Notes: generated from the sequence alone by a model not told the origin. Numbered from the stretch's first letter, positions 19,554 to 64,000 are shown. The stretch is DNA of 64,000 nt from Kiritimatiellia bacterium (GCA_963578625.1 CAUZEO010000001.1:14188-78187), one strand, 5' to 3'. Numbers and translations are program-made.

Positions 19554-19600
19554 TCGAAGTTGCATTCCTTGTTCGTTAGCTATCGGCGGCGAATCGCCAA

Positions 19601-20686: not shown

Positions 20687-20708
20687 GGTTTCTCCACGTG
20701 ATTTTGAA

Positions 20709-22949: not shown

Positions 22950-22958
22950 GGTTGTGGA

Positions 22959-23729
22959 ATGGACGACGAGGCACGAGACTATGACAGTCTTGAAATCCGA
23001 GATTCGAAATCAGCCTTCACGTTGATTGAGCTTCTGGTGGTCATCGCTATCATCGCGGTGCTGTCGGCGATTCTGCTCCCGGCCCTCAGGGAAGCGCGAC
23101 TGCGTGCCTACACCGCATCCTGCCTGCCGAATATTCGGGGCGGGCACCTGGTCCAGACCCAGTACGCGCTCGATAACGGAGGCGAATATGCAGAGGCGCC
23201 TGAGCATTTACCGGATTATTTCCGGGAGGGAGGCTCATACCAGGGGAGCCGCCGGCAGAAGTTCGAGGATTATGTTTCGAATTACAAGATCCTCTCCTGC
23301 CCCTATCACAACTATTCGATGCGAAAATTTCGGGCCGATCGGCATTGGCGCCGGGAGTGGACCACCAGCGGCCCCGCCAACACCTACAATTTCTGCCACA
23401 TGAACTACATGTGGATGGGCAACTACACGGCGGGAATCTCTGCCTACTATAACGGGGAGCTCCCGTGGCCGAAGTCCATGGATGAAAGCACTCCGGACCG
23501 CGTGCTGGTCACCCACCGGATCAACCTCATCAAGGGATACGGAGCCCAACTGCTCAGCCACAACAATGCGCTCGACGTGCTGGGCATCCGGCGTCTCCAG
23601 CAGCCGGAAATGGAACTGGGCGGGTTGAAAGAAAACCCGGTCGGATATGCTGATGGCCACGCACTGGTCATTCAGGCCGAAGACATCGTACGGCGTGTGA
23701 ACAGCGGCAGGGGAGTCCTGTTTTACTGA
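22959..23729 (+). CDS. Prepilin-type N-terminal (DUF1559-like) protein, tandem paralog
   Basis: [25 protein letters not shown]. More than 90% nucleotide identity to the upstream gene across ~700 nt. Confidence 0.75.
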   Translation: MDDEARDYDSLEIRDSKSAFTLIELLVVIAIIAVLSAILLPALREARLRAYTASCLPNIRGGHLVQTQYALDNGGEYAEAPEHLPDYFREGGSYQGSRRQKFEDYVSNYKILSCPYHNYSMRKFRADRHWRREWTTSGPANTYNFCHMNYMWMGNYTAGISAYYNGELPWPKSMDESTPDRVLVTHRINLIKGYGAQLLSHNNALDVLGIRRLQQPEMELGGLKENPVGYADGHALVIQAEDIVRRVNSGRGVLFY

Positions 23730-43084: not shown

Positions 43085-43217
43085 CGCTATTTGTGGGCTT
43101 CCAAGCCCGAGCGCGTGCAAAGGAAGTTCATGGGCCTGAGAATGGGTTGCGATTATCTCGTTATTCTCTTTCTATGATCACCCCTTGCTCCGGGTCGGGC
43201 TTGGAAGCCCAACCTAC
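43085..43217. mobile_element. MITE-like element copy 2 (~130 bp, 14–18-bp TIR gggcttccaagcccgagc)
   Basis: Left gggcttccaagcccgagc; right gctcgggcttggaagccc (perfect 14-bp inverted repeat). Related to 19307..19433. It overlaps and supplies the last ~19 codons of the 43161..45233 ORF. Confidence 0.55.
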
Positions 43218-45233
43218 ATGTTGCAATTCCTTACACAAGTCCGGGATCCGGCCTGTGTAAAACAGTTTTTGGATGGCGGCTTTCCGCTCAGGCTCAACAG
43301 CATCAAGCAGATCCAGCAGCACTTTTTCTTTGAGCCAGTACCCGTGATGATACTTTTCCCTCAACCCGGCGGCGGCGGTGAGCGATGCATATCCACGCAG
43401 AACGCGTACGTCTGTAATCCCCGCCTTCTCCTCGTTTGAGAGCTGCGGCGGCACCGCACATTCTTCGGAATGTTCACTCACGTTCAATCCAAGCGATACC
43501 GCCGTGTCATAAAGCATTCTCGCTTCAAGCCACTGACGGGCGCACAACTGCTCGTAGATCTTCTTGAGTTTTCGGTAGGCTTCATACGGGGCCGTGTCCG
43601 ACCAGTCCAGGATCGGTTCGCCGTCCCAGTTCGAGATTTTCCATCCATTCATCGGCGTATCGACTCTCAGATTGAATAGCGGCTGGACGTCGGGGTGAGG
43701 GTGTTCGGAATTGGCAAATGTTAGCAGGTTCACAGTCCGGTTCACACGCCACGTCTGTTGCACGTTTCCGTACTCCGCCAAACCATACTCAATGCGGTCG
43801 ATAAATCCGTTTCCGTCGGTGTCGTGGTAGCGTACGAGGTCGTGAAGGAGTCCTTTGCCGGGCTCCGGGCCTTCATCGGTTGTTGCGCCCCATGCGCTTG
43901 AGCGGTCGATGGCGCCTTTGAAATGACCATAGTAGTCAACGTTCCAGTCGGCTTCGTCTGCCCGGTACAGGTGGATCCTTCCGTCAAATGCACCGATGTA
44001 GAGCTGCCCTTTCCCGTCGAAATCCGTGTCGTGTTCGACCCGATCCCCCAGCTTGTCCGAGAAGATCCGGGTGTCCGAGTATTTGTCATTCCGGGCAAAC
44101 ATCTCTTCCCAACGATTGTCGTCATTGTCCTCATCAAAGAGCCACCAGGTGCCGATCCATCCGTCAAAGTCCGTCGCGATCTTGTACCCGTCCAGGTACG
44201 GAAGATAAAAGCGCCTGTCTTCACGCGCCATCTGCTCCCACCCGCTGCCGAAAAACTTCCGGGCATAGGCCGGCGCAGGCAGTGCTTCGATCTTGTCCAG
44301 GTAGTTCGTGAGAGGAAGCCCGGGCGTCCAGTACGCGGTATAGGTCAACTGGCAATCCAGGCTGTGCCACTTCTCGCGGCTCAGCTCGCCATTGAGCTCG
44401 AAGGCAAACTCGGCTTCATGAGCCCGGGCCGATTGCCCCTGCAGGTCATGGGTGGGATACCCTTCGTCGGCGATGCGCATGACCATCTCGGTGAAGCCGT
44501 CGTGATTGAAGTCATACCAGGCAATGGGCGTTTCCCAGGCCAGGGAGACGTCGCCCCAATGGATCCTGGTGTTGAGAAAAAATCCGCTGCCGTGGACGTT
44601 CTGAAAGTATCTCCCGCCCTCGGCGTAGCCATGCTCATTTCCGTAGCCGAACCCTGCAAAATTCAAGTGCTTGAAGTCACGCTCGCCATTCAGATTGACC
44701 ATGGTTTCGACCACCGTGTTCGCGCAAAAGTACTCCAGGTCCGGACTCCCGTCCTGGTTCAGATCCACAATCCGGTAATAGAAATCCGCCTTGCCACTGA
44801 ACTCCCCGTCGCCGTCGTTATCCGCCAGCAGCAAATAGCTGCCCCAGTTCGCGCGCAACGGGTTCCACACCACCGGCGGCTCGGCGCCGGCCGAGAAGGC
44901 CTCCGTCAATGTCTCTGCCGGGTCGAGGGATGCCGCCTGCCACCGCGGCAAAAAATCGCTTCCCTCATCGACCACCACGACTCGCTTTTGATTCCATAGA
45001 GTGTGAAGCGTATCGACCGTGCCATCTCCGCTCAGATCTTCATAGAAAGGCATTGCCGCGTCATCAGTCCCGTCTTTTTGAAGATCGGCAATCGCGGAAC
45101 CACTACCGGTCGCTGTGAAAACGCAGCAGAGCGGCAGAATTGCCCAAGAAAAGCTGCAATGCAGATTCGCCTTCATCAGCGGCAGCATCTGGCATAGAAT
45201 TAATGAAAGCAACGTCGAACACCCATATGACAC
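43161..45233 (-). CDS. Hypothetical secreted protein with Asp-rich (calcium-binding-like) repeats
   Basis: 690 aa, N-terminal signal peptide, DNDGDGEFSGKADFYYRIVDLNQDGSPD-type motifs. The 3' end is inside the MITE-like element. Confidence 0.6.
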   Translation of the reverse strand: MSYGCSTLLSLILCQMLPLMKANLHCSFSWAILPLCCVFTATGSGSAIADLQKDGTDDAAMPFYEDLSGDGTVDTLHTLWNQKRVVVVDEGSDFLPRWQAASLDPAETLTEAFSAGAEPPVVWNPLRANWGSYLLLADNDGDGEFSGKADFYYRIVDLNQDGSPDLEYFCANTVVETMVNLNGERDFKHLNFAGFGYGNEHGYAEGGRYFQNVHGSGFFLNTRIHWGDVSLAWETPIAWYDFNHDGFTEMVMRIADEGYPTHDLQGQSARAHEAEFAFELNGELSREKWHSLDCQLTYTAYWTPGLPLTNYLDKIEALPAPAYARKFFGSGWEQMAREDRRFYLPYLDGYKIATDFDGWIGTWWLFDEDNDDNRWEEMFARNDKYSDTRIFSDKLGDRVEHDTDFDGKGQLYIGAFDGRIHLYRADEADWNVDYYGHFKGAIDRSSAWGATTDEGPEPGKGLLHDLVRYHDTDGNGFIDRIEYGLAEYGNVQQTWRVNRTVNLLTFANSEHPHPDVQPLFNLRVDTPMNGWKISNWDGEPILDWSDTAPYEAYRKLKKIYEQLCARQWLEARMLYDTAVSLGLNVSEHSEECAVPPQLSNEEKAGITDVRVLRGYASLTAAAGLREKYHHGYWLKEKVLLDLLDAVEPERKAAIQKLFYTGRIPDLCKELQHVGWASKPDPEQGVIIERE

Positions 45234-46059: not shown

Positions 46060-47045
46060 TCATCGGCGCAGGTACGATTCAGGAGCCCCGCCGGACAAGC
46101 GCCGGCCGTCGACCTCCAGCGTGAAGAGGTTCTGCTCCAACGGCTCCCGGAGCGCATCCTCCCGCATGGACTTGTGCGTCAGCTTTTTCAGGGATATCCC
46201 GTTGTGATGTCGAAGCACGACACGCATCGCGCCGTTTTCAAAGGTATCGCTCTCATCGCCTTCCACAAAGCGGGGCGCCGTGTCCGGCGGTGCCTGCAGT
46301 GGGGTAAATTCCGGTGCCATATCGATCGCCGGCAGGGGCGGAAAGTCCTCGTGACTGAACGAAAGATCATCCTTGTTGGCGTTGCGGTTGAGGAGAACCA
46401 TCCGGACCATGTATTCGCCGGCAAAGCCGTCCTTATTTAGGGGGCGCGGCATCCACGTCGCGCCGGCATCGGTTGATCGGGAACTGCAGCCCTGATCCTC
46501 AAATATGTCGATGCTGATCACCAGCCGGTCGTCGTTCTCCGGTGAATCCGAGCTGGGGTGGATGACGATCTCATTCGGACCATGGACGAGCTGCTTCCCG
46601 GGAATGTCGAAGTCGAACCAATTGATGGCCAGCCGGATGTCGAACCAGCCCCATCCGGTGCTGACGAGGTTCTCCGTAGGGAACGTGTTGGTATGACCGT
46701 TCACCATCACCTGAAACGTCCCGTCGAGACCATCGCCCTCGTCGTCCTGCGCGTGCATGAAGATGTTGACCCGGGCCGACTCGATGGCGGCAAAGTCCTG
46801 ATCCGAGAGATCGGTCAGATCCAGGATTTTCTTGATTCGCTCCGCTGAGGGCCGCTGCGTGACGTGGCTGTAGTCCTTGTAGTTGTAGAACGAATAGTCG
46901 GCGGTGGCCACGAACACGCCGGGTTCGGGTTCGATGATGGTTGCAGGCTGCGCCGCGCTGACTACCGCGGATACCCGGGCAGGAGCAGAACAAGCGATGC
47001 GACGGCAGCATTCCGGACAAGGCACGCATGAGTCCCAACTGTCAT
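46060..47045 (-). pseudogene. Family-B N-terminal-domain remnant (frameshifted start, truncated after ~320 codons)
   Basis: Encodes the B-family N-domain (…VATADYSFYNY…FQVMVNGHTNTFP…ISIDIFEDQG…FSHEDFPPLPAIDMAPE…ENGAMRVVL…LFTLEVDGRRL) and then stops. The ATG at 47045 has an AAGGAG SD and a signal-peptide-like start in another frame. Confidence 0.55.
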
Positions 47046-47143: not shown

Positions 47144-49879
47144 TCAGGGAGCCGTCGAATCAGACCCCGGCCAAACGACCGCATCCACGAGGCGGTCGTT
47201 TCGGTGGATTTTCAGGACGAGGCCCGGCTGATCGCGTGCTTCGGCCGGCCAGTCCAGTCGCTGCCTTCCGCCGGTGAGCGGGAATTCAGCCAGCACGGTA
47301 CCATCATCGCCGACCAGCTTGCCGGTCATTCCTTTCGCGTCTTTGGGAAGATGCAATTTGCCGCCGTCGCGCTTCCACTCCACTTGTGCCAACTCAGGCA
47401 GTCGGGCAACGATAGCAGCTTTGCGGGCGGGAAGACTGATCGGGAGCACCGACTGATTACCCTTCCGGGAGGTAGACAATTCCGCATGGCGTAGCAGGTC
47501 GACAACGTGAGTGCCCGGTTTCGCATCCAGCAAGAGCAGATCGCCTTCCACCGCCTCGTTCCGCGCATTGTAGATCGTGTAGACCGTCTTTTCTCCCGCA
47601 GGAAATTCGTTGGCATAGACCTGCGGCATTAACGTGGGAATCATGGGTTTTGGGTATAACGCGCCGAAGGCATCGGCGTTTTCCTGCATGACCGCCAGTT
47701 CTTTCGGCGAGAAGCACCATTCCCGGTTGAACGCCCCGGTGGCGTTGAATATTCGCCACTCCGGAACTTTGGATAACACCTGGTAATCGAAAATCTTGAA
47801 GCGTGGAAAATAGAAGCGTGCGACGTTGATGCCCACAAATCCTTCCACCTCGCCGAACGTGGGAAGGATCTGCCGCCATTCGGATAGATCGTAGGACAGG
47901 GTGCCGTCGAAATATTGCCAGATCAGGTCGAAGCCGGGATTCTCGGTCATGAGCACCGTGTCCGGGTCCACCTGGTCGACAGCCATACGTACCTGCCGGG
48001 CGGCGGCAAGCTGGGCCTGGGCGTCGACCTGGTGATTCGGCTCACCGAATGTGTGCGTGTGGCGGTCGTTGTAACAGATCGGATTGTTCGCACCCATGAC
48101 GTCGATACGAATGCCGTCGGTCCCGGTTTCCACGGTCAATCGACGGCAGGTTTCGGCGATGTATTCCCGCCACTCCGGGTTGTTCATGTCCATGCCCCAC
48201 ATGGCGCCCATGGGCCACTGGTACCGGGGTTCGGGCCAGTCCTCGTGCTTTTCAATGACGCCCCACTCCGGGCCGTGGCGCGCACCGATGATGCTGGAGA
48301 GCGCGGCCTCACCGACATTGATGTAGAGCGTGACCACGTAGCCCAGCCGTTTCATATCATCCAGATAGCCGCGAAAGGCGGGAAGTCCACCCCACCGCTC
48401 GTTGTACCCCTGGAGGCCGTAGTCGCCCTGGTTGCCCCAAAAATACCGGGTCCCCTCCATGAATGGATCCCCCCGAATTTCCGGTTCGTGAGGAAATTGA
48501 AACGCAAATTTCCCATCCTGCATGATGGCGGACCGTTCCGACGTGACCACGTTGGTATGGCCTGCCTGCTCAATGGCGGTTTTCCGGTGTTTCTCAAGAT
48601 ACTCGTCGGTGACCACATCCCATTCCCAGTAGGAGGTGTGCTCCACCATGTCCAGCGGGGAGCTCAGATACTCGCGGGAGTGCTCGCCTTCGAAAATCGG
48701 GATGTGCCCCCATTGTCCTATATCAGTGTTGTACCCGTTTTCATTGTGAAAATGATGCGCCGCGCTGGTTCCCTCGAGGTTGAACCGGTCGATCAGTTTT
48801 CCCGGATGAGGCCGCTGATGCGCGAAGCTCTCGAACCAGGACCGGTAGGCCTCCATGGCCTGGCGCCAGTCCCCATTGCAGACGCCGAGCACGGCGGTGG
48901 GAAGAAACCAGCGCTCGTCGGGTTCGAGGTTACGTTGTTGATACGTGAACGCCATAGAGGTGCCGGGTTCCGCTTCCAGCGGATCGTGAAACACCAACTC
49001 TCTCACCAGCCGGCCATGCCTCATGGCTTCCTCGGTGGTCCGAAATCCAAACTCCGTCCGACCGTCGGGGACGTTTGCCTTGTTCAGGTGCATGATCTTG
49101 AATTCGCCGGTCTGATCTGCGGCATTGAGATAGAGCCCCCCGCCCTTGTCCGGCCGATAGGATGCCATGACCTGGAAGTAGGCCTGTCCGCCGCCGTAGG
49201 CATTGGCGAACACGGCAGGCGACTTGGATAGAATACCGGTGAGCAACGGGTAGAAGAAATGATCTTCCGTTGGGTCGCTGTCCCAGGCGATGCCGGTGAG
49301 CATGGGAAAGGCCACGTTGACATCTTTCGCGGCAGCGCCCGTATTCTGCAACGACAAGCTGATGCGGAGTTCCGGACCCTCGTCGGCGCGGATCTCCACG
49401 GTCGCGTGAATACGCTGATCGCTTTCCAATTCGTAGCGGACAAAGGCCGACCCGGGAGGCGAAACCGGTTCGGTCCGCGAGGCGACCCGAAAAGCGCGGC
49501 TGTCCACCCGGTCCCCGTCGATCATCAACGTGAAAAACGGGCTGCCCTCTTCTGATTCGATGACGGACGCCCCTGCGGGACGATGGTGGAATTCGCGGAC
49601 CGCCAGTCCCGGATCGGTCTCCATGAGCATACGGAACCACCCGTTCTCCAGCGTGTCCGCGCCGGATTGAGACGTGATGGTTGCAGCTTGCGATGCAGGC
49701 GATTCGAGTTCAAGCACCGGCGGATTCAAGTCGATCGACTTTGCTCCGCTCGATGCGGCATGAACCTGTGAGGCCACCAGGCAGGGAATGAAATACAGTG
49801 AATAAATGAGTGTGCGTGCCACGGCGAAGAACTCCTTGATATTTTGATCCCAATGCTTCCGGCGCGAGCCGACGGTCAC
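47144..49879 (-). CDS. Family B copy B3, core-only variant (own signal peptide, lacks N-terminal domain)
   Basis: 911 aa. Begins with the signal peptide TLIYSLYFIPCLVASQVHAA and then joins the B alignment at IDLNPPV. All core blocks are conserved. Confidence 0.8.
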   Translation of the reverse strand: MTVGSRRKHWDQNIKEFFAVARTLIYSLYFIPCLVASQVHAASSGAKSIDLNPPVLELESPASQAATITSQSGADTLENGWFRMLMETDPGLAVREFHHRPAGASVIESEEGSPFFTLMIDGDRVDSRAFRVASRTEPVSPPGSAFVRYELESDQRIHATVEIRADEGPELRISLSLQNTGAAAKDVNVAFPMLTGIAWDSDPTEDHFFYPLLTGILSKSPAVFANAYGGGQAYFQVMASYRPDKGGGLYLNAADQTGEFKIMHLNKANVPDGRTEFGFRTTEEAMRHGRLVRELVFHDPLEAEPGTSMAFTYQQRNLEPDERWFLPTAVLGVCNGDWRQAMEAYRSWFESFAHQRPHPGKLIDRFNLEGTSAAHHFHNENGYNTDIGQWGHIPIFEGEHSREYLSSPLDMVEHTSYWEWDVVTDEYLEKHRKTAIEQAGHTNVVTSERSAIMQDGKFAFQFPHEPEIRGDPFMEGTRYFWGNQGDYGLQGYNERWGGLPAFRGYLDDMKRLGYVVTLYINVGEAALSSIIGARHGPEWGVIEKHEDWPEPRYQWPMGAMWGMDMNNPEWREYIAETCRRLTVETGTDGIRIDVMGANNPICYNDRHTHTFGEPNHQVDAQAQLAAARQVRMAVDQVDPDTVLMTENPGFDLIWQYFDGTLSYDLSEWRQILPTFGEVEGFVGINVARFYFPRFKIFDYQVLSKVPEWRIFNATGAFNREWCFSPKELAVMQENADAFGALYPKPMIPTLMPQVYANEFPAGEKTVYTIYNARNEAVEGDLLLLDAKPGTHVVDLLRHAELSTSRKGNQSVLPISLPARKAAIVARLPELAQVEWKRDGGKLHLPKDAKGMTGKLVGDDGTVLAEFPLTGGRQRLDWPAEARDQPGLVLKIHRNDRLVDAVVWPGSDSTAP

Positions 49880-52390: not shown

Positions 52391-55300
52391 ATGAACCAGA
52401 GATCAAGTTTCACTTCAGCTCGCCGAACCCTTTCGAGATCGTTGTCACCCATTATCGCAATCCTTGCGCTTGCGGCTGTGTCCACATCGCAGGCGAATGG
52501 CACCACAATTCTCCAGCCGACCGGCGGTGTCCACGTGGCCGTAGCCGACATGGGGTTTTACGATTTTCAAAATTTTGCCCACGTGGTACTCGCGAAGCCG
52601 TCGCAACGACTGAGGAAGGTGCTGGACCTGTCCGGCATTGATGAGCAGGCCTGGCAGAGGATCGGCGCGGCCGAAGTGAGCCTGTTCCTGCACGCCGAAG
52701 ATGCGTCAGGGGACGGACTCGATGAACATTTTGAAATTGTCGTTAACGGCCACGTGAACGTATTCGCTACCGAGGGCCTACGCCGTACTGGAATGGGATG
52801 GTTCGGGCACTACCTGCCCACCGGTTGGTTCGATTTCGCAATCAATGCGGACCAGCTTGTTCGTGGAACAAACGTGATCGTGGTTCAGAGAAGCGATTCC
52901 GCACAGGCCGGAGACGATGTATTAACCATCGGTATCGATATTTTCGAAGACAGGGGCCGGAGCTGGTGTTCGTTCGATCGCGGTTCCAGCTGGAGCCCGG
53001 GACCCTTGAACCGGCCGTTGGCGAGTGTGGGCTATCCCGACTACGGGCACTACGGAGAGTTGATGATTCGTCTCAATCTCTACGACGACGCTACCCGCCT
53101 GGGAAGAAAAGGATTTTCCCACGATGATCTTTTGCCGTTGCCGGCTGTGGACTTGAACCCTCCGGTAAAGCTGCTGCCGACTCCATCAACCTTCCCGGCA
53201 AGTGTTGCACTTGGAGGGGAAATCGACCGGCTGGAGAACGGATGGATGCGCCTGCAGATTGGGCATGCCAAGGGTCTGGCCCTGGAGGAGATAATCCATA
53301 AGCCCATGCGCAGGAACGTGGTAAAGGAAGGCCCAACCAGCCTGTTTGCGCTGGAGGTGGACGGGCGGCACGTGCAAAGCGCCGAACTGGAAGTGACGGG
53401 CCGCGAGCAGCTCGCTACGGGTTCGAGCGCGGTGAAGGTTGTTTACTTTCTCCGGGATCCGACCAGCGAGGTGGAAGCGAACCTCTCACTGCGACTGGAC
53501 AACGAGTCCGAGCTCACGGCAGGCCTGTATTTGAAGAATGCGGGTACGGCACCCCGCGGCATCAAGGTGGCGTTTCCGATGCTCACCGGCCTGGGGTGGA
53601 GCGAGGGATTCAAGGACGATTGGTATCTGTTCCCCTACACCACGACCGGAGTCATGCTGAAACACCCGGGGAAATTCGTAAATCCCTATGGCGGGGGAAC
53701 CGGCTCGGGGAACACGTTCTTTCAACAGATGACGTCCTACTCGCCTTCGATGGGTGGAGGCCTGTACATGAGAGCGAACGATTCCAGTGGCGGGTACAAG
53801 CTTTTTCATCTCACGCGAACCGATGCTACCGGATCGCCGCCCTCGTTTTCGTTCCAGGGAATCATCCACAATATGCTGCATGGCCAGGCCACGCCGCAGC
53901 TTGTCTTTCTCGAGCCCTCAAAACCGGCCGCCGGCACCAGCATGGCGGTCAGCTACATTCAGCGTGAATTGGCGCCCGGCGAGCGGTGGATCCTTCCCCA
54001 GTCCGTCATCGGAATCATGAACGGCGACTGGCGCCAGGCGATGGAGAGCTACCGTGCATGGTACGAAGGCTGGTCGCACAAGAGACCCTATCCCAGCAAA
54101 CTCGCCGCCGTCTTTAACCTCGACGGTGTCAATGCAGCGGGGGGCTACCACAAGGAGGATGGATACCATTCGGATTTCCACGAAGCGTGGAGCCGGCCCG
54201 CGGATGGGCTCGAGCACACATCCTACTGGGAGTGGGACGAGGTAACGGATGAGTACCTGGCCGAAATGCGGGAACTCGCCGCCCGCTACGGCAAGGAGTT
54301 CACCTTGTGGCCGGGCCGTCACGGGATCCACGGGGGAACACATTACTATCACGAAAGCAGAAAGGGAGACTACGGCCTGACCGGGTACAACGAACGCTGG
54401 GGCGGTCTTCCCGCGTTCCGGAAATACATCGATGAGGTGAAGAAGCAGGGCATTCTTGCCACCCTCTATGTCAACGAAGGGGAGGCCGGGCTGAACAGCG
54501 TTATCGGGCGGGAAAAGGGGCCGGACTGGGGCGTGATGTATCCGGACGGAGTTTACTTCTGGCCCTACTGGATGTGGGAAATGTGCGTCGACAACCCGCG
54601 GTGGCGAACCTACCAGGCGGATTTCTGCAGACGGCTGATCGCGGAGACCGGGGTCGACGGCTTGCGCATTGACGAATTCGGGGGGGCATCGCGCATCTGC
54701 ACCAATCCAGGTCATGAGCACACCTTCAACCGCCCCGGTCATTACGCCACGTTCGAGGCACAGACCGAAGCGTGCCGGCAGATCCGGATGGCCGTGGACC
54801 AGGTCGACCCCGATGCGATCGTGATGAGCGAGACGCCGGGAATCGACACCATGTGGCAATACCTGGACGGCGCGCTGAATTACGATCTCACGCAATCCTC
54901 GTACACCGGGGGCCGGGCCGCAAACTGGGAGGGATTCGTGGGGCTCAACATCTGCCGGTTCTACTTTCCAAGATACAAGCACTTCGACTACCAGATCCCG
55001 GAAAAGCTTCCTGCATGGCGGTTGTTCAATGCCACCGGGGCATACAACAATGAGTTTTTCTACGAGGAACTGGAACACTCCATTTTGAAGGAGAATGCCG
55101 ATGCGGTCGGTACGTTGAATCCCAAACCCATGATTCCCACGCTGCTGCCCAGGGTCTACGTCAACGAGTTTCCCGGCGAGGAAAAGACGATCTACACGGT
55201 GTATAACAGCAGGCACGCCGCTGTTTCGGGAGACTTGCTGGCGGTGCCGCACAGGCCCGGATTTCATTTCGTGGACCTGGTCAACATGGAAGAGGTGGGG

Positions 55301-55612
55301 TCACGGAAAGAGAAGGGCGTGGAGATTATTCCAATCCATCTTCCCGCGCGAAGCGCCACCCTCGTCGCCCACATGCCAAAGCTGTTAACGCTCAAGCGAA
55401 GCAGGGGGCGCGTCGATGTGAAATTGAATCGAGAAGTCCCGGGCGGAACGTTCCACGTGATGAAGCGCGATGGCCCCGTGCTGCCTCCTGCTTCCGTTGA
55501 AGGCCTGAAATTGAAACTCGATCACATCGAATTCATCGGGAACATCAAGGACCCGATGATCATCAAGCTGCAGGTAGGATCGAGGCTGGTGGATGCGGTG
55601 GTGGTGGACTAG
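52391..55612 (+). CDS. Family B copy B2 (secreted)
   Basis: 1073 aa, signal peptide, full-length collinear with B1. Confidence 0.85.
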   Translation: MNQRSSFTSARRTLSRSLSPIIAILALAAVSTSQANGTTILQPTGGVHVAVADMGFYDFQNFAHVVLAKPSQRLRKVLDLSGIDEQAWQRIGAAEVSLFLHAEDASGDGLDEHFEIVVNGHVNVFATEGLRRTGMGWFGHYLPTGWFDFAINADQLVRGTNVIVVQRSDSAQAGDDVLTIGIDIFEDRGRSWCSFDRGSSWSPGPLNRPLASVGYPDYGHYGELMIRLNLYDDATRLGRKGFSHDDLLPLPAVDLNPPVKLLPTPSTFPASVALGGEIDRLENGWMRLQIGHAKGLALEEIIHKPMRRNVVKEGPTSLFALEVDGRHVQSAELEVTGREQLATGSSAVKVVYFLRDPTSEVEANLSLRLDNESELTAGLYLKNAGTAPRGIKVAFPMLTGLGWSEGFKDDWYLFPYTTTGVMLKHPGKFVNPYGGGTGSGNTFFQQMTSYSPSMGGGLYMRANDSSGGYKLFHLTRTDATGSPPSFSFQGIIHNMLHGQATPQLVFLEPSKPAAGTSMAVSYIQRELAPGERWILPQSVIGIMNGDWRQAMESYRAWYEGWSHKRPYPSKLAAVFNLDGVNAAGGYHKEDGYHSDFHEAWSRPADGLEHTSYWEWDEVTDEYLAEMRELAARYGKEFTLWPGRHGIHGGTHYYHESRKGDYGLTGYNERWGGLPAFRKYIDEVKKQGILATLYVNEGEAGLNSVIGREKGPDWGVMYPDGVYFWPYWMWEMCVDNPRWRTYQADFCRRLIAETGVDGLRIDEFGGASRICTNPGHEHTFNRPGHYATFEAQTEACRQIRMAVDQVDPDAIVMSETPGIDTMWQYLDGALNYDLTQSSYTGGRAANWEGFVGLNICRFYFPRYKHFDYQIPEKLPAWRLFNATGAYNNEFFYEELEHSILKENADAVGTLNPKPMIPTLLPRVYVNEFPGEEKTIYTVYNSRHAAVSGDLLAVPHRPGFHFVDLVNMEEVGSRKEKGVEIIPIHLPARSATLVAHMPKLLTLKRSRGRVDVKLNREVPGGTFHVMKRDGPVLPPASVEGLKLKLDHIEFIGNIKDPMIIKLQVGSRLVDAVVVD

Positions 55613-56323: not shown

Positions 56324-58204
56324 TCAACGACCCGCAATAGCCCCCAGCCCTTCAATGGCCTCCGCAATTTGCGCCCGGGCCGCGTAGAGGTTGCGGGCAT
56401 CGCTGTCATAGTCCGTCATGCTGCGGACGAGCTCGTGGACGGTGGCCAGTGCCGCCTCGCCGGCGACGATCGCTGCGGCGCTGCGTGGATCTTCGGATCT
56501 ACCGGCCCGGGCACGTGCCAGGGCTTGTTCGAGCACCCAGAAATATTCCTTGTCCTCGAGTCCTTCGCGGATCATTTCCCATCGGATGGAGTTGACCGGG
56601 CCCGCGATCAGCGGCTCGTCCGGTACACCTCGGGCCGGTGGATAAAGCAGCAACCCGTCCCCGTTGCCAAAGTGCCCTCCGCCGGGTGAGATCGCCATCG
56701 CGGTCTCCCAGGGGTTGCGGATGGCACGATCGGCGACGGCTTCTCCGATACCTTTATAATAGTTCACGCTCCAGTAGAGGGTCCCGGTCACTTCGTATTT
56801 CTTCATCATCCAGAAATGAATCCGCTGGTTGATGGCGGGATGATCGATGAAATTGTTGGCGTACGGGTGCTTGGGGCCGGTGCAGATATACCACCAGATT
56901 TCATCGCCGGCCGCGCGGCTCTTTTGGGCCCTGGATTCGTCGTAGTGTGAGGTTAGCGGCACCCAGATATCAACTGCGTCGTCAATCTCGTGTCCGATCC
57001 CCAGCGTCACCAGGCGTTTCAGCCCGGGACAGATCCGCCGGACCAGTTCGCCTTCCTGTACTATCAGCGGAAAATCCGATTCGGGGGGCTCGTCCCACAG
57101 ATAACAGTAAACCCTGTCCTGCCAACCTTTTTGTTGCACGTGTTTCCAGATGGGACCGAGAATGAGTTCAAAATACCGGTCGTAAGCCGGGTCTTCGCGC
57201 CATTTCCCCTCGCTGCGTCGGGGGCTGAACCGCGGTGGTCCGAACAGGTCGTTGGGGGGCCAAAACAGGCAAACCGAATTGAACCCCAGTTCATCCAGGT
57301 AGCGGGTGGCCAACCGGTCGAACTCGGTGAGGTCCAGTTCCAGGTCGCCGGACTCCCGGTTCCTGCGATTCACCAGTTCGCTTGGGCTGAGCTTTACGCG
57401 GGCAAGATCCGTGAGGTTGAAGCCGTGCGTAACCGGAGAAACGCGATGCTCGGCGAAATTCTGCATGTAGAGATCGTGAACCTCTGCCCGCTCGGCGCCG
57501 GTTCGGAGGCCATGGTACGCGAAGTCGTCCATCCAGATTCCATACGCGCTCCGGGTGTGGGTATCCTCAGGCAATGTGAAGTCCCAGACCTTCAAACGGA
57601 GAGGCACCCGATGATCGTCGGTGCCGGTCCGTTGCAGAATGATGGTGCCCGCATAGTCTCCGGCAGCCGCGTCCGCCGGCACATGGATGGTAATCCAGAA
57701 CGGATTGTTCTTTCCGCCCGACAAGTCTGCCGGCCCGTCCGTCGGGGGCAGCGGATCCGGCCAGTCGCCTGCCGTGCCGAAGGCATCGGTTGAGTCCGTC
57801 ACGGGTACGTACTCCGCGCGGTCGATTCGAATCGACTCTCCACGAATGGACGCCGAGCCCGGGCCCTTCAGATCGCTGATGTTGATTTGAATTCCCGGCA
57901 TCGATTCCGCCGGCCGCAGTACGAGTTGGAACGGTTCGTACTCGTTTCGGGCGGCCGCGATTTCAACATGCGTTGTGGTTGAAGTGGGAGTCTCTCGTTC
58001 CCGGCCCACTTTATACGTTCCTTCACACCACCACAGCTCCAAGCCGTCCGGACCCGTAAGGCTGTAGCCGAAATCCGTTGCCAGGATCTCCGGCACCGGG
58101 GAAGCGGCTATACTCATCGGGACTCCGATAGCTGCCACGGACATCCACGACACCCAGGTTCGCTTGATTGGCATCATGCCTTCCTCTCTTATGCGTTCGG
58201 GCAA
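56324..58204 (-). CDS. DUF4091-like secreted protein (putative glycoside hydrolase)
   Basis: 626 aa with a signal peptide. GNGDGLLLYPP…IREGLEDKEYFW C-terminal block. Parent of the pseudogene at 13094..13623. Confidence 0.7.
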   Translation of the reverse strand: MPERIREEGMMPIKRTWVSWMSVAAIGVPMSIAASPVPEILATDFGYSLTGPDGLELWWCEGTYKVGRERETPTSTTTHVEIAAARNEYEPFQLVLRPAESMPGIQINISDLKGPGSASIRGESIRIDRAEYVPVTDSTDAFGTAGDWPDPLPPTDGPADLSGGKNNPFWITIHVPADAAAGDYAGTIILQRTGTDDHRVPLRLKVWDFTLPEDTHTRSAYGIWMDDFAYHGLRTGAERAEVHDLYMQNFAEHRVSPVTHGFNLTDLARVKLSPSELVNRRNRESGDLELDLTEFDRLATRYLDELGFNSVCLFWPPNDLFGPPRFSPRRSEGKWREDPAYDRYFELILGPIWKHVQQKGWQDRVYCYLWDEPPESDFPLIVQEGELVRRICPGLKRLVTLGIGHEIDDAVDIWVPLTSHYDESRAQKSRAAGDEIWWYICTGPKHPYANNFIDHPAINQRIHFWMMKKYEVTGTLYWSVNYYKGIGEAVADRAIRNPWETAMAISPGGGHFGNGDGLLLYPPARGVPDEPLIAGPVNSIRWEMIREGLEDKEYFWVLEQALARARAGRSEDPRSAAAIVAGEAALATVHELVRSMTDYDSDARNLYAARAQIAEAIEGLGAIAGR

Positions 58205-58325: not shown

Positions 58326-60206
58326 TCACTTCATCACCGGGATCACAATCCCGCGCATGATGATGCGTTGGGCGAGAATAAAGACGATGAGCGGGGGCAA
58401 CGAGGCGAGGGTAAGCGCCGCCATGACCAGGTATTCCGGATTGTACATCTGCAGTTCGTACAGAAAGACCATGATCGTCCAGAGCTCAGGATTCTGACAC
58501 ACGATAAATGCCCACATGAAACTTCCGTAGGCGAAGGTAAATGCGAACAGCGCGATAACGGCGAAAATCGGCAGGCACAAGGGCACGACAACGGTCAGGA
58601 ATATGCGCGCCTCCGACGCCCCTTCCAGTTCCGCCACTTCGAACAACTCCTGGGGCAGGCTGTCGAAAAATCCTTTGAGCAGGAATACGTAAAACCCGTT
58701 CACCAGGTTCGGCAGGATCAGGGCCCAGTAGGTATTCAGCAGGTGGAACTGCTTCAGCAGGAGAAAAGCGGGGATCATGGCAATCTCCGCCGGAAATGCC
58801 ATCGTCGCCAGAAGGAAAAGAAGAATCTTGTAACTGTATCGAAGCCGGTACCGTGACAAGGCATATGCGCAGAGGGGTCCAATGGTCACCTGCCCGATGA
58901 CGACCCCCAGGACAAGAACCAGTGTGTTCCAGAACGCGCGGCCGCGCGTGATCATGTATTTACCCATCATGCGGTAGTTCCGCGTCAGAAAATCCAGCCG
59001 AATGCCAATCTTGTTCCGGCTGAACGCCAGCACGTCGGCCTCCAGGTAGGGCGGGGCAATTTCGGAGAAGCACTCGTACTGTGTGCCGTACGCGGCATTT
59101 ACCTGTTCAGCGCTGCCGAACTTTTTCTCAAGGAAGACTCGATATCGAGTGTCGGCACTGTCCACGCGCAAGGTCTCAGCCGGAGTGTGCTGTTCCACGA
59201 ATTCCTGCCAGTCCCTGCGCGGCAGAGACTCGGAGGGCTCGGTGTTCGAAAGCTGGACATCGGCGATTTTCGCGTAGTGGCTGCCGTACTCACGGTTCAG
59301 CCGCTCCGCGCTGCCGTACTTATTGCGGAGATAATCAGTGAAGGCCTCCCCTCCGCCTTCGAGTGTGAGATACCGGAATGGCCATTTGCGCCTGACAAAT
59401 TCTTCCCAGTCTTCACGCGCTGCCCCCGAGGGGGGGGCGGTCACAACAAGCGGGACCCGCATAAAGGATGAGTAGCTGGACGCGTATGCCTCGTTCAGTG
59501 ATTCAAGCTGTAGATACTTCCCTTCGAGAAATTTTCCAAACTTTGCATCTCCCGACACAACGATCCGGTATGGATGGGGAAGGCTGTCCCGCAGTTCCTC
59601 CCAATGCCGCCAATGGGGTGTATCATCCGGATCCCATGAGCGGACCATGGGGTCCTCGTACGGCAACAATACGTCCTCGAATTCGGTATTCTGGTCCAAA
59701 TACACCCGGTTCAGCGCTTCGATGTCACCCCGGAAGCGGTTTCGCAGGGCGCCTGCATATTTTGAGGCTACCTTCACTTCGAAAGCCCGTTGGAAAAACC
59801 GGGACGGGAGGCTTTCCTTGAACTGAATCCACTCTTCAACGCGCGAGATCGTCCGGGCCGAGGTTGGATCGATTTCGTCCAGGTTCAGCCCCACGTCTTC
59901 GTAGCTCAGGAATTCGGTCCGGTAACAGTCGTTGAGGTTCTGAATGTTGACGCCCTGCTTCATGAAATTCTGGAAGTAGCCGTACCGGTCGTTGATGTAC
60001 TTCAGAAACAAGACATCATCGTTGAACAAATACCTGGGCACGAGCCGGTGCTCCGAAACATCGACAGCGCTGCAAATCGACGAGCCGAGCATCAGGCCGA
60101 AGGGATACAGCACGGTGATCGCGCCAAGGGTCAGCACGAGGTAGACCCCCGCGATGACCGCGCGTGTGGTCCAGGCTTTCCGGCCTACGGTACTGATAAT
60201 AGGCAT
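58326..60206 (-). CDS. Carbohydrate ABC transporter permease (MalG-like) with ~380-aa periplasmic domain after TM1
   Basis: The C-terminal half has 5 TMs and the EAA loop ELFEVAELEGASEARIF. The N-terminus has one TM followed by a large soluble domain. Confidence 0.8.
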   Translation of the reverse strand: MPIISTVGRKAWTTRAVIAGVYLVLTLGAITVLYPFGLMLGSSICSAVDVSEHRLVPRYLFNDDVLFLKYINDRYGYFQNFMKQGVNIQNLNDCYRTEFLSYEDVGLNLDEIDPTSARTISRVEEWIQFKESLPSRFFQRAFEVKVASKYAGALRNRFRGDIEALNRVYLDQNTEFEDVLLPYEDPMVRSWDPDDTPHWRHWEELRDSLPHPYRIVVSGDAKFGKFLEGKYLQLESLNEAYASSYSSFMRVPLVVTAPPSGAAREDWEEFVRRKWPFRYLTLEGGGEAFTDYLRNKYGSAERLNREYGSHYAKIADVQLSNTEPSESLPRRDWQEFVEQHTPAETLRVDSADTRYRVFLEKKFGSAEQVNAAYGTQYECFSEIAPPYLEADVLAFSRNKIGIRLDFLTRNYRMMGKYMITRGRAFWNTLVLVLGVVIGQVTIGPLCAYALSRYRLRYSYKILLFLLATMAFPAEIAMIPAFLLLKQFHLLNTYWALILPNLVNGFYVFLLKGFFDSLPQELFEVAELEGASEARIFLTVVVPLCLPIFAVIALFAFTFAYGSFMWAFIVCQNPELWTIMVFLYELQMYNPEYLVMAALTLASLPPLIVFILAQRIIMRGIVIPVMK

Positions 60207-60223: not shown

Positions 60224-62923
60224 TTATTTCGCCGTGGTGAACTGAACCCGCTTTAGAATTCTCAATTGCCAGATCGCGAATCCGATCAGCAGGCTGGCAA
60301 GCACCCAGGACAAGGCGCTGGCGTAGCCGAAGCGCAAGTACAGGAATGCGTTGTAGTAAATCTCGAGTCCGAGCACGTGGGTGGCATAGGAAGGGCCGCC
60401 CCCGGTCATGACAAAGATGTTTTCCGTGGCGCGAAAAGCGCCAATGAAGGCGCCTACGAAATTGATGAGGATCAGCGGGGTGAGATAGGGGAGCGTCACG
60501 TGCAGCACTTTGCGCACGGGGGACGCCCCGTCCATGTCCGCGCTGTCATACAGATCGTCGGGCACGGTCTTGAGGGCCGCGAGATAGATGATGCTTCCGG
60601 GCCCGGCCGCGGTCCAGATGGCGGCGACGATGACGCTGAGCATGGCGAGGTCGGGATCCTGAAGGAATCCAAGCGGGGATTCGATGAGGCCGAACCTGAG
60701 CAGCCAGCTGTTGATGACCCCCACCGGTGAAGGGTCATACATATTTTTCCAGAGGAACATGAGCACCAGCATGCTGGTGACGGCGGGTAAATAGAATACG
60801 ACGCGAAAGAACAGGCTTCCGCGTGGAACTTCCTGTAACAGGATGGCGAGGAGGATCGGCGCGAAGAATCCCAGGCCCAGGGTCAGCGCCACGTAATACA
60901 GGGTGTTGAGGATCGACCGCCAGAAGATGTCGGAGTTGAGCATGTTGATGAAGTTGTCCATCCCGATGAACCGGCTGTCGCCGAGCACCCGGTAGTCCTG
61001 GAACGCCATGATAGCGACCTTGATGAGAGGATAGTATTGCCACACGGCGATCGCCAGCAGCGCGGGAAACATCAGCATCCAGGCCTCGAATTGGCGCCTG
61101 GGACGCGGATTCGGAGGCATCATGACCGCGTCCGCGTTGTCGCGGCGTCGGTAGGCTGCAAACCAGAGGCCCAGTGCGAAGACCACCGCCAGTACGAGCC
61201 CGATGGCCACGTAATTTGCAACTTTCCGCTTGTGCGCCATTTCGGCCGGATCCGATGCTCCGAGGAGAACCTTGTTTCCTCGATCCGCGCATGCATTCAG
61301 GAGTGCGCGCGCGTCCACGGATTCGATTTCGTCTTCCTTCGCATACAAGAGTGCGTCCACCGGCGCGGCGATATCCACCAGTACGCTCTTGAACCCGGTA
61401 GGCAAAGGGTCGTTGCGCCCGGTTTGCAGCAGCGTTTCGTAGGTCGACAGCCACTGGCGCGGGGCGTCGTCGAGGTAGTCGTCGTACCCGAATTTTCTCA
61501 GGTATTGCGGATCCACCAGTTCGCCGTATCCACTTTCCACGTGGAAATCCACCTTGATCCGTTTTGCCTGGTCGGAGGCAATATGCCGGATATACGCCCA
61601 GGCCGCTTCGCGCACTTCCGGGTCCTTCACCTGCGAATTTATGCCTCCGCAGTTGGCGCCGAATCCCGAGGCCGCGAAACCATCGGGTCCCTCGGGGAAC
61701 GGCGCGTACCCGAACAAGTTGGGCGGCTGGAAGACCTGGGCGCCGATGACGAATTCGCTGCAGATGTTGATCAGCATCGCGACCTGCCCGTTGAGCAGTT
61801 TATCGTTCATGTGATAGTAAGACGAGAGGGTCACGACGCCGGTGTAAATTTTCCGATCCGCCTTTTTCTGATCGAGAATTTCCTGCGAAAGGACATGGCC
61901 GTTCGGGCACTTGATGATTTCCGGCCTGACAAATTTTCCGGTTCGGTAGTCCACGCCACGCACATCCACCGGTTCGTTGTCCTCGGGACATCGCGTCCAC
62001 CGGCTCCATCGAAGTTTCTTGTAGAAATTCAGCGCCATGACCCCGGGGTCCCGGTTGAAAGCGACCTGCCACCTCACCGGTGCATCCGCCAGGGGGACCT
62101 GGTGTGTTGGACACTCGTCGGGGAACAGGTGGTTTTGTCCTTCATTGTCGAGCTCGATCGGATCCACGAGTTCCGCGCCGGCCGGGCACTCTTTGCCCGG
62201 AATGGCCAGACGCCCGCCCGCTTGATAGATGAAGGACGGGAAATACATCGACGTGTTATGGGGCCCGGTCATAATGCCGTACCCGTACAAGCCTCGATCG
62301 TGATCCGTCAGTTTCTGCGCGAAAGTATAAAGCTCGTCCCAGTCGTGAGGGCCCCGGTGGGGGTCAAGACCTGCATCGCGAAACCGGTCCCGCCGGTAGT
62401 AGAGGCCGGACAGGACATAATCGTAGGGAATCCCATAGATGTGCCCGTCATGGGTCAGGCCCGCGCGTATTTGCGGCAGGAAGATTCGGTCAAACCATTC
62501 CTTGTTTTCCGGTCGATTGATGAATTCATCGAGGGGATAAAGAAATCCTTCTTCCACATAGGTTGCCAGTGATCCGCTGTTGACCTGAACCACATCGGGT
62601 GCGGTGTTGCCGGCCATGGCCATCAGGAACATGGATTGCGAGGCCGGATTGGTCGAGTCCTCCATCTTGATGCCGCCGGCCTGCCGGACCTTGATGTGTG
62701 GATGCTTCTGTACGAACGCTTCGTAAACAAGCCGGTTCGGGCGTTCCAGTTTCCATTTCACCTTGGGCACTTCCCAGATCGAAAGCTCTACCGGATCGGG
62801 TGCGGGTTGGGCCGGGGCGGCGACCGCGGACTGGAGCCCGAAGAGAGCAAAACACAGGGCGAGGAAAAGTTTCGGGTGGGCGGGATCTTGACAGAAATTC
62901 GAATGTGTCACGGATAACAACAT
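60224..62923 (-). CDS. Fused sugar-binding protein (SBP family 1) plus ABC permease (MalF-like)
   Basis: Signal peptide (KLFLALCFALFGLQSAVAAPA) and a ~600-aa solute-binding domain. Then 6 TMs with the EAA motif DSADMDGASPVRKVLHVTLP in the same frame. The ORF opens at 63112. Confidence 0.75.
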   Translation of the reverse strand: MLLSVTHSNFCQDPAHPKLFLALCFALFGLQSAVAAPAQPAPDPVELSIWEVPKVKWKLERPNRLVYEAFVQKHPHIKVRQAGGIKMEDSTNPASQSMFLMAMAGNTAPDVVQVNSGSLATYVEEGFLYPLDEFINRPENKEWFDRIFLPQIRAGLTHDGHIYGIPYDYVLSGLYYRRDRFRDAGLDPHRGPHDWDELYTFAQKLTDHDRGLYGYGIMTGPHNTSMYFPSFIYQAGGRLAIPGKECPAGAELVDPIELDNEGQNHLFPDECPTHQVPLADAPVRWQVAFNRDPGVMALNFYKKLRWSRWTRCPEDNEPVDVRGVDYRTGKFVRPEIIKCPNGHVLSQEILDQKKADRKIYTGVVTLSSYYHMNDKLLNGQVAMLINICSEFVIGAQVFQPPNLFGYAPFPEGPDGFAASGFGANCGGINSQVKDPEVREAAWAYIRHIASDQAKRIKVDFHVESGYGELVDPQYLRKFGYDDYLDDAPRQWLSTYETLLQTGRNDPLPTGFKSVLVDIAAPVDALLYAKEDEIESVDARALLNACADRGNKVLLGASDPAEMAHKRKVANYVAIGLVLAVVFALGLWFAAYRRRDNADAVMMPPNPRPRRQFEAWMLMFPALLAIAVWQYYPLIKVAIMAFQDYRVLGDSRFIGMDNFINMLNSDIFWRSILNTLYYVALTLGLGFFAPILLAILLQEVPRGSLFFRVVFYLPAVTSMLVLMFLWKNMYDPSPVGVINSWLLRFGLIESPLGFLQDPDLAMLSVIVAAIWTAAGPGSIIYLAALKTVPDDLYDSADMDGASPVRKVLHVTLPYLTPLILINFVGAFIGAFRATENIFVMTGGGPSYATHVLGLEIYYNAFLYLRFGYASALSWVLASLLIGFAIWQLRILKRVQFTTAK

Positions 62924-63150: not shown

Positions 63151-64000
63151 TCAGGAATCGCCGGGGACCACTGCATCCACCAGCAGTTTTCCCCGGTAGA
63201 GTTTGCAGATCACTCTTCCTGAATCGGCAGGTATGGTAAGCGTCGCACGCCCGGTCCCCGCTTCTTCTTCCGCGAGGATTTTTCCAGAGAGGTCTACCAG
63301 TTTAAGCGTCGCGTCTTCGAAGTCATCCGACAGACGAACCGTGAGTTCGCGACCTTTCTGTTTCACCTTCATCAACTTCGACAGGTGGGCAATACAGGTG
63401 ACAGAGCGCGGTTCGAGCTCGATGGCGACCACGGTCTTGTCGCCCCTCGTGGAGGCTTTGACGTTGCGGTACCGGTACAGATCGACCAGGTGCGTGCCTT
63501 TGCGGGCGGGGATGTCCAGCAGAGCACCCTTTGCCGGGATGTTCGCCGCATTGTACACGGTCCACACGGTTTTGTCCTTCGCCGGGAATTTGTTCACGTA
63601 CACCAGGGGAATCTTTGACCTGATCATCGGCTCCCGATCCAGCGACCCGAACGCATCGCTGTTGTCCCGCAGGATATGCCGCTGGTGCTCGCGGTAACAC
63701 CATTCCCGATTAAATGCTCCGGTGGCATTAAAGAAACGCCACTCAGGCTGTTTCAGGCTGATCTGGTAGTCGAACATCTTGTGGCGGGGAAAGTAGAAAT
63801 GATGGATGTTGATGCCGACGAACCCCTCCCAGTTTGCCGCCACGTGGGCGGTGAACGGCTGTTCCGTCAGGTCGTAGCACAAACTGGCGTCCAGGTACTG
63901 GCCCAGCACGTCGATACCCTGGGACTCCGAGAGGAGGACCGAATTCGGATTCACGCCGTCCATGGCACGGCGCACTTGCCGCGCGGCATCGGACTGCGCC
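63151..64000 (-). CDS. Family B copy B4, C-terminal part (5' end beyond window)
   Basis: …VDGVNPNSVLLSESQGIDVLGQYLDASLCYDL…FYFPRHKMFDYQ…FNATGAFNREW…PMIRSKIPLVYVNKFPAKDKTVWTVYN matches the B core C-terminus. The frame stays open to 64000. Confidence 0.75.
   Translation of the reverse strand, partial: AQSDAARQVRRAMDGVNPNSVLLSESQGIDVLGQYLDASLCYDLTEQPFTAHVAANWEGFVGINIHHFYFPRHKMFDYQISLKQPEWRFFNATGAFNREWCYREHQRHILRDNSDAFGSLDREPMIRSKIPLVYVNKFPAKDKTVWTVYNAANIPAKGALLDIPARKGTHLVDLYRYRNVKASTRGDKTVVAIELEPRSVTCIAHLSKLMKVKQKGRELTVRLSDDFEDATLKLVDLSGKILAEEEAGTGRATLTIPADSGRVICKLYRGKLLVDAVVPGDS

Follow-up and report, generated by a model that had tools for sequence, protein, structure and literature searches.

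Does a single gene of a Kiritimatiellia bacterium encode both the receptor and a membrane subunit of a sugar importer and, if so, how would such a protein work and how widely does it occur? The question is raised by a gene on the minus strand of a 64,000-nucleotide stretch of DNA (GCA_963578625.1 CAUZEO010000001.1:14188-78187), referred to here as the window, with positions counted from its first letter. An earlier note on the window, made from the sequence alone, had described this gene as a substrate-binding protein fused in frame to a MalF-type permease within one open reading frame (ORF). The fusion is genuine, is conserved across several bacterial phyla and is almost always found beside a second permease gene. 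With good confidence, the gene can be assigned as the MalF-like membrane subunit of a CUT1-type (MalFGK2/UgpAEC/SugABC-like) oligosaccharide importer of the ATP-binding cassette (ABC) type, its receptor being tethered as an N-terminal domain.

One reading frame with two domains

The ORF runs uninterrupted on the minus strand from an ATG at 62923 to a TAA stop at 60224-60226 and encodes 899 amino acids. Its longest version begins at an ATG at 63112 and comprises 962 amino acids, and public gene calls are split over the start, with 899 amino acids in NCBI, ENA and Logan versus 962 in JGI. The start at 62923 is favoured because homologues have short N-termini, and the 899-residue form is used throughout. 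Pfam places SBP_bac_1 at residues 65-239 (E = 4.4e-27) and BPD_transp_1 at residues 689-889 (E = 1.7e-11), with SBP_bac_8 also matching the protein (E = 7.8e-19). The NCBIfam model for UgpA-type permeases aligns with residues 605-892 over profile positions 5-290 of 295, and hence over nearly its full length (E = 2.3e-30). These domain matches lie far beyond chance. Among solved importers, the closest PDB sequence matches of the permease part are AlgM1 (E = 4.4e-24), SugA (E = 2.5e-21) and MalF. The NCBIfam matches to the binding part are all UgpB or carbohydrate-binding proteins, yet weak; the named models score far below their cut-offs and no specific ligand is indicated. Pfam finds no signalling output domain in the fusion protein. 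An AlphaFold2 model of the whole protein, built on 21 sequences, has a mean predicted local distance difference test score (pLDDT) of 82.3 and a predicted template modelling score (pTM) of 0.80.

Conservation and distribution of the fusion

The identical 899-residue protein appears in gene calls on contigs of separate ENA and Logan assemblies, and NCBI and JGI list it as well. A word-indexed search recovered 20 homologues of 758-913 amino acids, all of which carry both Pfam domains and, between them, an additional transmembrane helix (TM0); they share 21-71% identity with the window protein across the multiple alignment, and 27-71% where the local alignment is best. An exhaustive search of 1.84 billion cluster representatives returned 1,448 matches at E ≤ 1e-30. 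Both domains, counted as such where at least 50% of the binding domain and at least 70% of the permease were covered, are present in 115 of the 149 best representatives (the close relative P0002 being left out), and each representative stands for one cluster at 50% identity, so that at least 115 clusters are fused. Most of the remaining 34 look like fragments at contig ends. Many single HMMER alignments span the junction unbroken, for example over query residues 355-898.

Single fused ORFs occur in five phylum-level groups of a collection of species-representative genomes: Armatimonadota (Fimbriimonadaceae, Capsulimonadaceae, Chthonomonas), Verrucomicrobiota (Opitutia, Chthoniobacteraceae, Terrimicrobiaceae), Lentisphaeria, Kiritimatiellae and Planctomycetota. 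The nearest loci in this collection share 34-38% identity with the window protein, and one named homologue comes from Cloacimonadota. A search for homologous fusions in other genomes of the Planctomycetes-Verrucomicrobia-Chlamydiae (PVC) group had been proposed in the earlier note, and the distribution found here covers Verrucomicrobiota, Lentisphaeria, Kiritimatiellae and Planctomycetota while also reaching beyond that group. In Actinomycetota, Bacillota and others (Streptomyces, Paenibacillus and Lentzea among them), tblastn matches fall on separate adjacent genes of about 450, 320 and 290 amino acids. Fused ORFs across the former groups, together with separate adjacent genes in the latter, mark the fusion as a derived and conserved state of the ordinary gene order.

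A single insertion or deletion could in principle have merged an ordinary binding-protein gene with a following permease gene through a frameshift or a lost stop, the ancestral order of binding protein and MalF-type permease being a common one (as in the separate genes of Streptomyces and Paenibacillus), but this explanation, which the earlier note had named as its own potential refutation, is already refuted for practical purposes by the identical protein in independent assemblies, by homologues that are all fused from 71% down to 21% identity, by the number of fused clusters and by a junction that holds a conserved TM0, a helix required by the topology and absent from ordinary binding proteins and UgpA-type permeases.

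Architecture and membrane topology

The layout of the fusion protein, as derived from a hydropathy scan, is given in Table 1. The same order of signal segment, TM0, basic loop and six helices is found in all 21 aligned homologues; each has an N-terminal hydrophobic segment, and the loop between TM0 and the core contains 3-7 lysine or arginine residues within 12-36 residues in every member. The earlier description of a permease with six transmembrane helices and an EAA loop holds for the core, while the helix total has to be raised to seven after the binding domain once TM0 is included. The EAA-type loop, for which the family consensus is YEAADxDGA...ITLP (alignment A1), lands on the predicted cytoplasmic side, as required.

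TM0 is interpreted as an extra helix that returns the chain from the periplasm because the UgpA-type core, whose N-terminus is cytoplasmic in this permease family, does not begin until about residue 605. Judged by hydropathy, by the distribution of charges and by the topology that is fixed in the permease family, TM0 would run from outside to inside in the N- to C-terminal direction, with the arginine cluster on the cytoplasmic side. This reverses the earlier proposal, in which the same cluster (AYRRRD) marked an in-to-out anchor. A mid-gene lipoprotein or other cleavable signal was considered and rejected, as the segment has no lipobox cysteine, precedes the UgpA profile match and leads into a basic loop of 25 residues with six lysines or arginines. 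The AlphaFold2 model contains one continuous predicted helix, residues 559-598, which starts where the binding domain ends and continues through TM0. Directly before TM0, on what is presumed to be the periplasmic side, all 21 members carry a conserved basic motif, P..M..RR..A, with 1-5 lysine or arginine residues in this segment.

The binding domain

Foldseek comparison with the PDB aligns about 520-530 columns of the binding domain at a target-normalised TM-score of up to 0.79, and every one of the 50 listed structures is a binding protein of the sugar or UgpB type, including Tlet_1705, GacH, T. maritima MalE3 and mycobacterial UgpB. Because the aligned columns extend over complete binding proteins of these types, the receptor is predicted to be a whole two-lobed domain and no fragment. 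The model of the tethered receptor that had been suggested as a check therefore returns a complete fold. The family-1 sugar-binding assignment made earlier was right as to type; the size of about 600 amino acids was an overestimate, as the domain spans about 520 (residues 38-558). That it reaches about 520 rather than about 400 amino acids is due largely to two clade-specific insertions, which together amount to about 95 amino acids and which, in alignment A1, the window protein shares with none but its two nearest relatives, P0002 and P0003. At the site of the second insertion, another homologue (P0011) carries a zinc-ribbon-like CxxC...CxxC pattern.

The partner permease and its repeat ectodomain

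The gene that starts 17 nucleotides downstream of the fusion gene encodes a second permease. Its C-terminal 200 residues constitute a MalG/UgpE-type permease with its own EAA loop, the membrane part being closest to SugB, AlgM2 and MalG, and a large predicted periplasmic domain is inserted after the first helix (Table 1). This conserved long MalG with a repeat ectodomain is the least expected element of the locus and lies beyond the gene that the earlier note considered. In its AlphaFold2 model the pLDDT is 83.8, and above 90 across most of the ectodomain, which is predicted to consist of four repeats of about 65-75 amino acids and a degenerate first one, each folding as helix, short strand, helix, helix. 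The repeats carry the motif [FY]GSxExLNxxYG. BLASTP shows a clear relationship between repeats 3 and 4 (E = 9e-14), and repeat 1, which gives no BLASTP alignment with repeat 3, is equated with it solely through its predicted secondary-structure pattern. The site of insertion, between core helices 1 and 2, corresponds to the position of the MalE-binding P2 domain in E. coli MalF, here on the other subunit.

When the partner model was compared with the PDB by Foldseek, all 50 listed matches were permease subunits of ABC importers, mostly of MalG type and led by SugB, AlgM2 and MalG, and none of them covers the ectodomain. A profile of the partner family run against PDB sequences shows that the repeats match, only weakly (E = 4e-4 to 3e-3), a stretch of about 55 amino acids in enzymes of glycoside hydrolase (GH) families GH42 and GH14, and the faint Pfam GH42 match of the partner arises because one short repeat resembles this stretch. 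There is no catalytic barrel in the partner permease, and the likeness is read as a probable shared small helical module, not as enzyme activity. At least 861 long-MalG homologues exist, with a notably constant length of about 625 amino acids. Several of them (for example P0181 and P0188) are publicly named "beta-galactosidase", which in proteins without a catalytic domain looks like an annotation error, the GH42-like repeat being its likely cause.

Gene pairing and genomic context

The fused gene and the long MalG gene are adjacent in the window and at loci L083, L085, L086, L087, L089, L090, L091 and L092, as well as at ten loci found in the genome scan. Three look-ups made from the long-MalG side each led to a fused partner. 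In one homologous operon, at L089, a 391-residue ATPase with ABC_tran and OB_MalK domains follows directly after the pair and completes a CUT1-type operon. Many CUT1 systems share an ATPase that is encoded elsewhere.

In the window, the pair lies in a glycan-utilisation neighbourhood. The gene downstream of the pair encodes a member of GH123, a family of beta-N-acetylgalactosaminidases, and the gene upstream is a paralogue of a large DUF6259 protein (Table 1). There are at least four such large paralogues, which weakly resemble GH66, GHL15 and alpha-amylase barrels; those at 52391-55612 and 63151-63975 are 43% identical over 274 amino acids. They give the impression of an expanded, uncharacterised family of putative glycoside hydrolases surrounding the transporter. 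Further neighbours are a GHL6/fucosidase-like protein, GH42M-like proteins, Laminin_G_3 proteins and oxidoreductases. Elsewhere, hydrolases accompany the pair at L090 (GH20 and melibiase) and at L091 (a GH123-like protein).

Locus L091 belongs to the genome of the closest relative (71% identity) and also contains, 4 kb upstream of the fused pair at 4427-7753, an unfused sugar ABC system composed of a binding protein of 460 amino acids and two permeases of 275 and 290 amino acids. Because the two systems lie close together in this genome, such organisms can be said to use both designs, fused and unfused. On the Armatimonadota-like contigs L083, L085 and L086, an HU gene lies downstream of the pair, with no carbohydrate-active enzymes and no ATPase nearby, and at L085 and L086 the pair is also near pyrimidine-biosynthesis genes (pyrF, pyrD, carB-like). 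Farther away in the window, positions 17900-23729 hold a cluster of Laminin_G_3 proteins with one PEP-CTERM anchor, followed by two proteins with prepilin-type N-terminal methylation motifs, a combination in keeping with an organism of the PVC type. Four ORFs of 321-752 amino acids have no Pfam match at E ≤ 0.001 (Table 1).

Table 1. Features of the fusion gene, its partner and their surroundings in the window (residue numbers refer to the protein named)
Feature	Coordinates	Strand	Evidence
Whole fusion gene, 899 aa: signal peptide, solute-binding domain, TM0, six-helix permease core	60224..62923	-	ORF; Pfam and NCBIfam domains; identical protein in independent assemblies
Fusion, putative N-terminal signal segment, residues 1-37 (hydrophobic core 19-37, ending AVAAP)	62813..62923	-	Hydropathy scan
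Fusion, hydrophilic stretch of 534 aa, residues 38-571		-	Hydropathy scan
Fusion, predicted periplasmic solute-binding domain, residues 38-558, two-lobed sugar/UgpB-type fold	61250..62812	-	Pfam SBP_bac_1 and SBP_bac_8; AlphaFold2; Foldseek
Fusion, insertion 1, residues 241-286, Cys246 and Cys271 in ECP...ECPTH motifs	62066..62203	-	Alignment A1
Fusion, insertion 2, residues 311-358, Cys312 and Cys339 in RCP...KCPNGH motifs	61850..61993	-	Alignment A1
Fusion, basic motif P..M..RR..A before TM0, residues 558-571	61211..61252	-	Present in 21 of 21 members
Fusion, TM0, extra helix, residues 572-590, mean hydropathy 2.6, followed by YRRRD	61154..61210	-	Hydropathy; precedes UgpA profile start at residue 605; in 21 of 21 homologues
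Fusion, loop from TM0 to core TM1, predicted cytoplasmic, residues 591-615, 6 Lys/Arg in 25 residues	61079..61153	-	Hydropathy scan
Fusion, UgpA/MalF-type permease core, residues 605-892, six membrane helices between 616 and 884	60248..61111	-	NCBIfam UgpA; PDB sequence matches
Fusion, EAA-type coupling loop YDSADMDGASPVRKVLHVTLP, residues 792-812, expected ATPase docking site	60488..60550	-	Read from sequence
Fusion, basic C-terminal tail, residues 885-899		-	Hydropathy scan
Partner MalG/UgpE-type permease, 626 aa, with large periplasmic insertion	58326..60206	-	NCBIfam UgpE (E = 1.8e-26) and MalG (E = 2.1e-19), residues 422-621
Partner, predicted periplasmic domain of 380 aa, residues 49-428, between helix 1 (16-48) and the next (from 429)	58923..60062	-	Hydropathy scan; AlphaFold2
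GH123-family glycoside hydrolase, N-terminal hydrophobic segment, downstream on the same strand	56324..58204	-	Pfam GH123_cat (E = 1.8e-28)
Upstream gene, C-terminal part (ORF may extend further upstream), paralogue of the DUF6259 protein at 52391-55612	63151..63975	-	BLASTP, 43% identity, E = 2e-72, to residues 798-1071
DUF6259 paralogue	27706..30948	+	
DUF6259 paralogue	47144..49879	-	
DUF6259 paralogue	52391..55612	+	
ORF	25429..27687	+	No Pfam match
ORF	39175..40158	-	No Pfam match
ORF	43161..45233	-	No Pfam match
ORF	46060..47025	-	No Pfam match

Relation to known transporters

Unfused CUT1 systems, such as MalEFGK2 of E. coli, LpqY-SugABC of mycobacteria and AlgQ-AlgM1M2SS of Sphingomonas, share with the window system the permease folds, the EAA loops in both subunits and the fold of the binding protein. 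They also share the order of binding part, MalF-like part and MalG-like gene, to which L089 adds a MalK-type ATPase with an OB domain after the pair. The window system departs from them in that its receptor is tethered through an extra helix and that the enlarged periplasmic loop sits on the MalG-like subunit and not, as in E. coli, on the MalF-like one; where E. coli MalF bears the P2 domain, the window permease has a loop of 38 residues.

The classical type I importers with fused substrate-binding domains are OpuA (glycine betaine) and GlnPQ (glutamine/asparagine) of Lactococcus lactis. Their permeases are homodimeric, resulting in two or four receptors per complex, and the covalent attachment fixes the stoichiometry and raises the local concentration of the receptor; in GlnP the order is signal peptide, binding domain(s), permease. 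Like these, the window protein combines binding domain and permease in one polypeptide, an arrangement conserved among its homologues. Unlike these, which belong to osmolyte and polar-amino-acid families with another class of binding domain, it has a receptor of sugar/UgpB type and a distinct, conserved MalG-type partner, with which a heterodimer with a single receptor would be expected. Covalent attachment of a receptor to its transporter has been stated in general terms (PMC8276074).

A fused sugar importer is known from Bdellovibrio bacteriovorus, whose maltose/maltodextrin transporter is reported to have a MalE homologue fused to MalF and to be transport-competent (Licht et al., 2019, Res Microbiol 170:1-12, pmid 30193862, as described in the reviews PMC6906923 and PMC7756565). 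The earlier view that receptor-permease fusions are rare in CUT1 systems is fair as a proportion; they are not without precedent, the Bdellovibrio fusion having been characterised both biochemically and structurally in 2019, as described in PMC6906923. The two fusions are alike in joining a family-1 sugar-binding domain to a MalF-type permease in a CUT1-type importer of a Gram-negative bacterium, and in a heteromeric permease pair that gives one receptor per complex. The structure of the Bdellovibrio MalE domain (PDB 6ffl) has the fold of the window receptor, ranking 37th in the Foldseek comparison at 15% identity, but is absent from the PDB phmmer matches of the window protein at E ≤ 0.001, so there is no specific sequence relationship. 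The window permease, moreover, is of the short UgpA/AlgM1/SugA type and is partnered by a MalG with a 380-residue repeat ectodomain, and its gene stands in a GH123/DUF6259 context without amylases, as against starch and maltodextrin for Bdellovibrio.

A second fused lineage (P0020 at L088, and the fused gene at L054) likewise has binding domain, TM0 and MalF-type permease in one ORF, but is followed by a MalG of normal size, 289 amino acids at L088 and 355 at L054. P0020 is 21% identical to the window protein over alignment A1, and 29% identical in the best local BLASTP segment, which covers 38% of the query; its gene is found beside a LacI regulator and a GH13 amylase. A relationship between P0020-type fusions and the Bdellovibrio 6ffl domain was considered and set aside, the match (E = 0.032) not being significant. 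Because P0020 is related at the level of sequence neither to 6ffl nor closely to the window family, the comparison suggests that fusions of a receptor with a MalF-type permease arose more than once, apparently in the window family, in the P0020 lineage and in Bdellovibrio. A literature search for this fusion in CUT1 systems or in Planctomycetes found nothing relevant.

Proposed function and alternative explanations

The pair provides the receptor and the two membrane components typical of a CUT1 importer. The fusion supplies a two-lobed family-1 (SBP_bac_1) receptor, as seen by Pfam and Foldseek, and a MalF/UgpA-type permease with six core helices and an EAA loop, and the gene at 58326-60206 supplies a second, different permease of MalG/UgpE type. 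In the proposed mechanism, the signal segment would send the binding domain of about 520 amino acids across the membrane, TM0 would stop the transfer and bring the chain back to the cytoplasm, and the six core helices would insert with their usual N-in topology. The fusion subunit would then pair with the MalG-like product of the next gene, which carries its 380-residue repeat domain in the first periplasmic loop, and a dimer of a MalK-type ATPase, encoded elsewhere in the genome, would dock on both EAA loops. The tethered domain would capture an oligosaccharide that secreted hydrolases encoded at the locus have set free, and would close around it; the closed receptor would dock on the permease pair, and ATP-driven opening would hand the sugar over to the channel. 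The two permease subunits being different, exactly one receptor is expected in each complex, where its local concentration would be very high. Domain order, fold, the conserved fusion and gene pair, and the MalK-type ATPase of L089 are matters of observation; topology, import as the direction, the substrate class, the permanence of the tether and any part played by the MalG ectodomain are inferred.

Several observations weigh against this assignment. Since lysines and arginines flank TM0 on both sides, with the P..M..RR..A motif on the side opposite the arginine cluster, charge by itself would not fix the orientation of the helix. No ABC ATPase gene is found in the 64-kb window, and that the genome encodes one is an assumption. 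At the Armatimonadota loci L004, L007 and L010, neither strand has a MalG-type gene within 8 kb; the partner gene may be located at another site, or the permease may form homodimers. In Armatimonadota, finally, the neighbours of the solitary pair are pyrimidine-biosynthesis and HU genes and not hydrolases, a context as compatible with housekeeping or recycling as with the scavenging of nutrients.

This last context also speaks for the idea that the system does something other than import the products of neighbouring hydrolases, namely recycle glycans or glycolipids of the cell envelope, as LpqY-SugABC does with trehalose, or act in sensing. Length and sequence are well conserved across phyla, which suggests a common substrate rather than locus-specific ones, and SugA and SugB are among the closest solved permeases. 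Such a role is nevertheless unlikely, as the pair lies among glycoside hydrolases in the window (GH123, DUF6259), at L090 and at L091, and as its architecture nowhere departs from that of an importer, with no signalling output domain.

It is still less likely that the protein is a precursor from which the binding domain is cut off near TM0 after insertion, to work free or separately anchored in a system resembling ordinary ones. The conserved basic motif before TM0, which is present in all members and has no explained role, could be taken as a hint of such processing. A TM0 running from outside to inside would, however, have the wrong orientation for signal peptidase I or II, there is no lipobox, and the model shows an unbroken helix from the binding domain through the membrane. 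Characterised fused systems also work intact, both the fusion of a substrate-binding with a transport domain (PMC8276074) and, as described in reviews, Bdellovibrio MalE-MalF (PMC6906923, PMC7756565). An intact importer subunit, whose receptor would stay attached throughout the transport cycle, is the form in which the fusion is considered here.

A more far-reaching proposal, offered tentatively and with more doubt than conviction, is that the fused receptor-permease and the MalG with its 380-residue repeat domain together constitute a distinct, widespread and as yet undescribed architectural class among the sugar ABC importers of PVC bacteria, Armatimonadota and Cloacimonadota. The repeat domain might replace the P2 loop of MalF, holding or gating the receptor, or might serve as a glycan-capturing antenna that feeds in long chains, so that the receptor would go through its cycle inside one permanently assembled periplasmic cage.

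Significance for binding-protein-dependent import

The fixed ratio and high local concentration of fused receptors made OpuA and GlnPQ model systems for ABC importers driven by binding proteins. For sugar importers, one natural fusion has been studied so far, that of Bdellovibrio. The window family is a large, conserved and uncharacterised lineage separate from the Bdellovibrio fusion, although the kind of design is already known, and it offers a larger and phylogenetically broad set of natural 1:1 complexes of sugar type. Its tether is short and apparently rigid, a single predicted helix leading from the binding domain into the membrane, and its partner subunit brings a large ectodomain without match among solved structures. 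The family could therefore be a compact, two-gene target for cryo-electron microscopy of a complete receptor-transporter cycle, and might show how glycans are taken up by bacteria with unusual cell envelopes.

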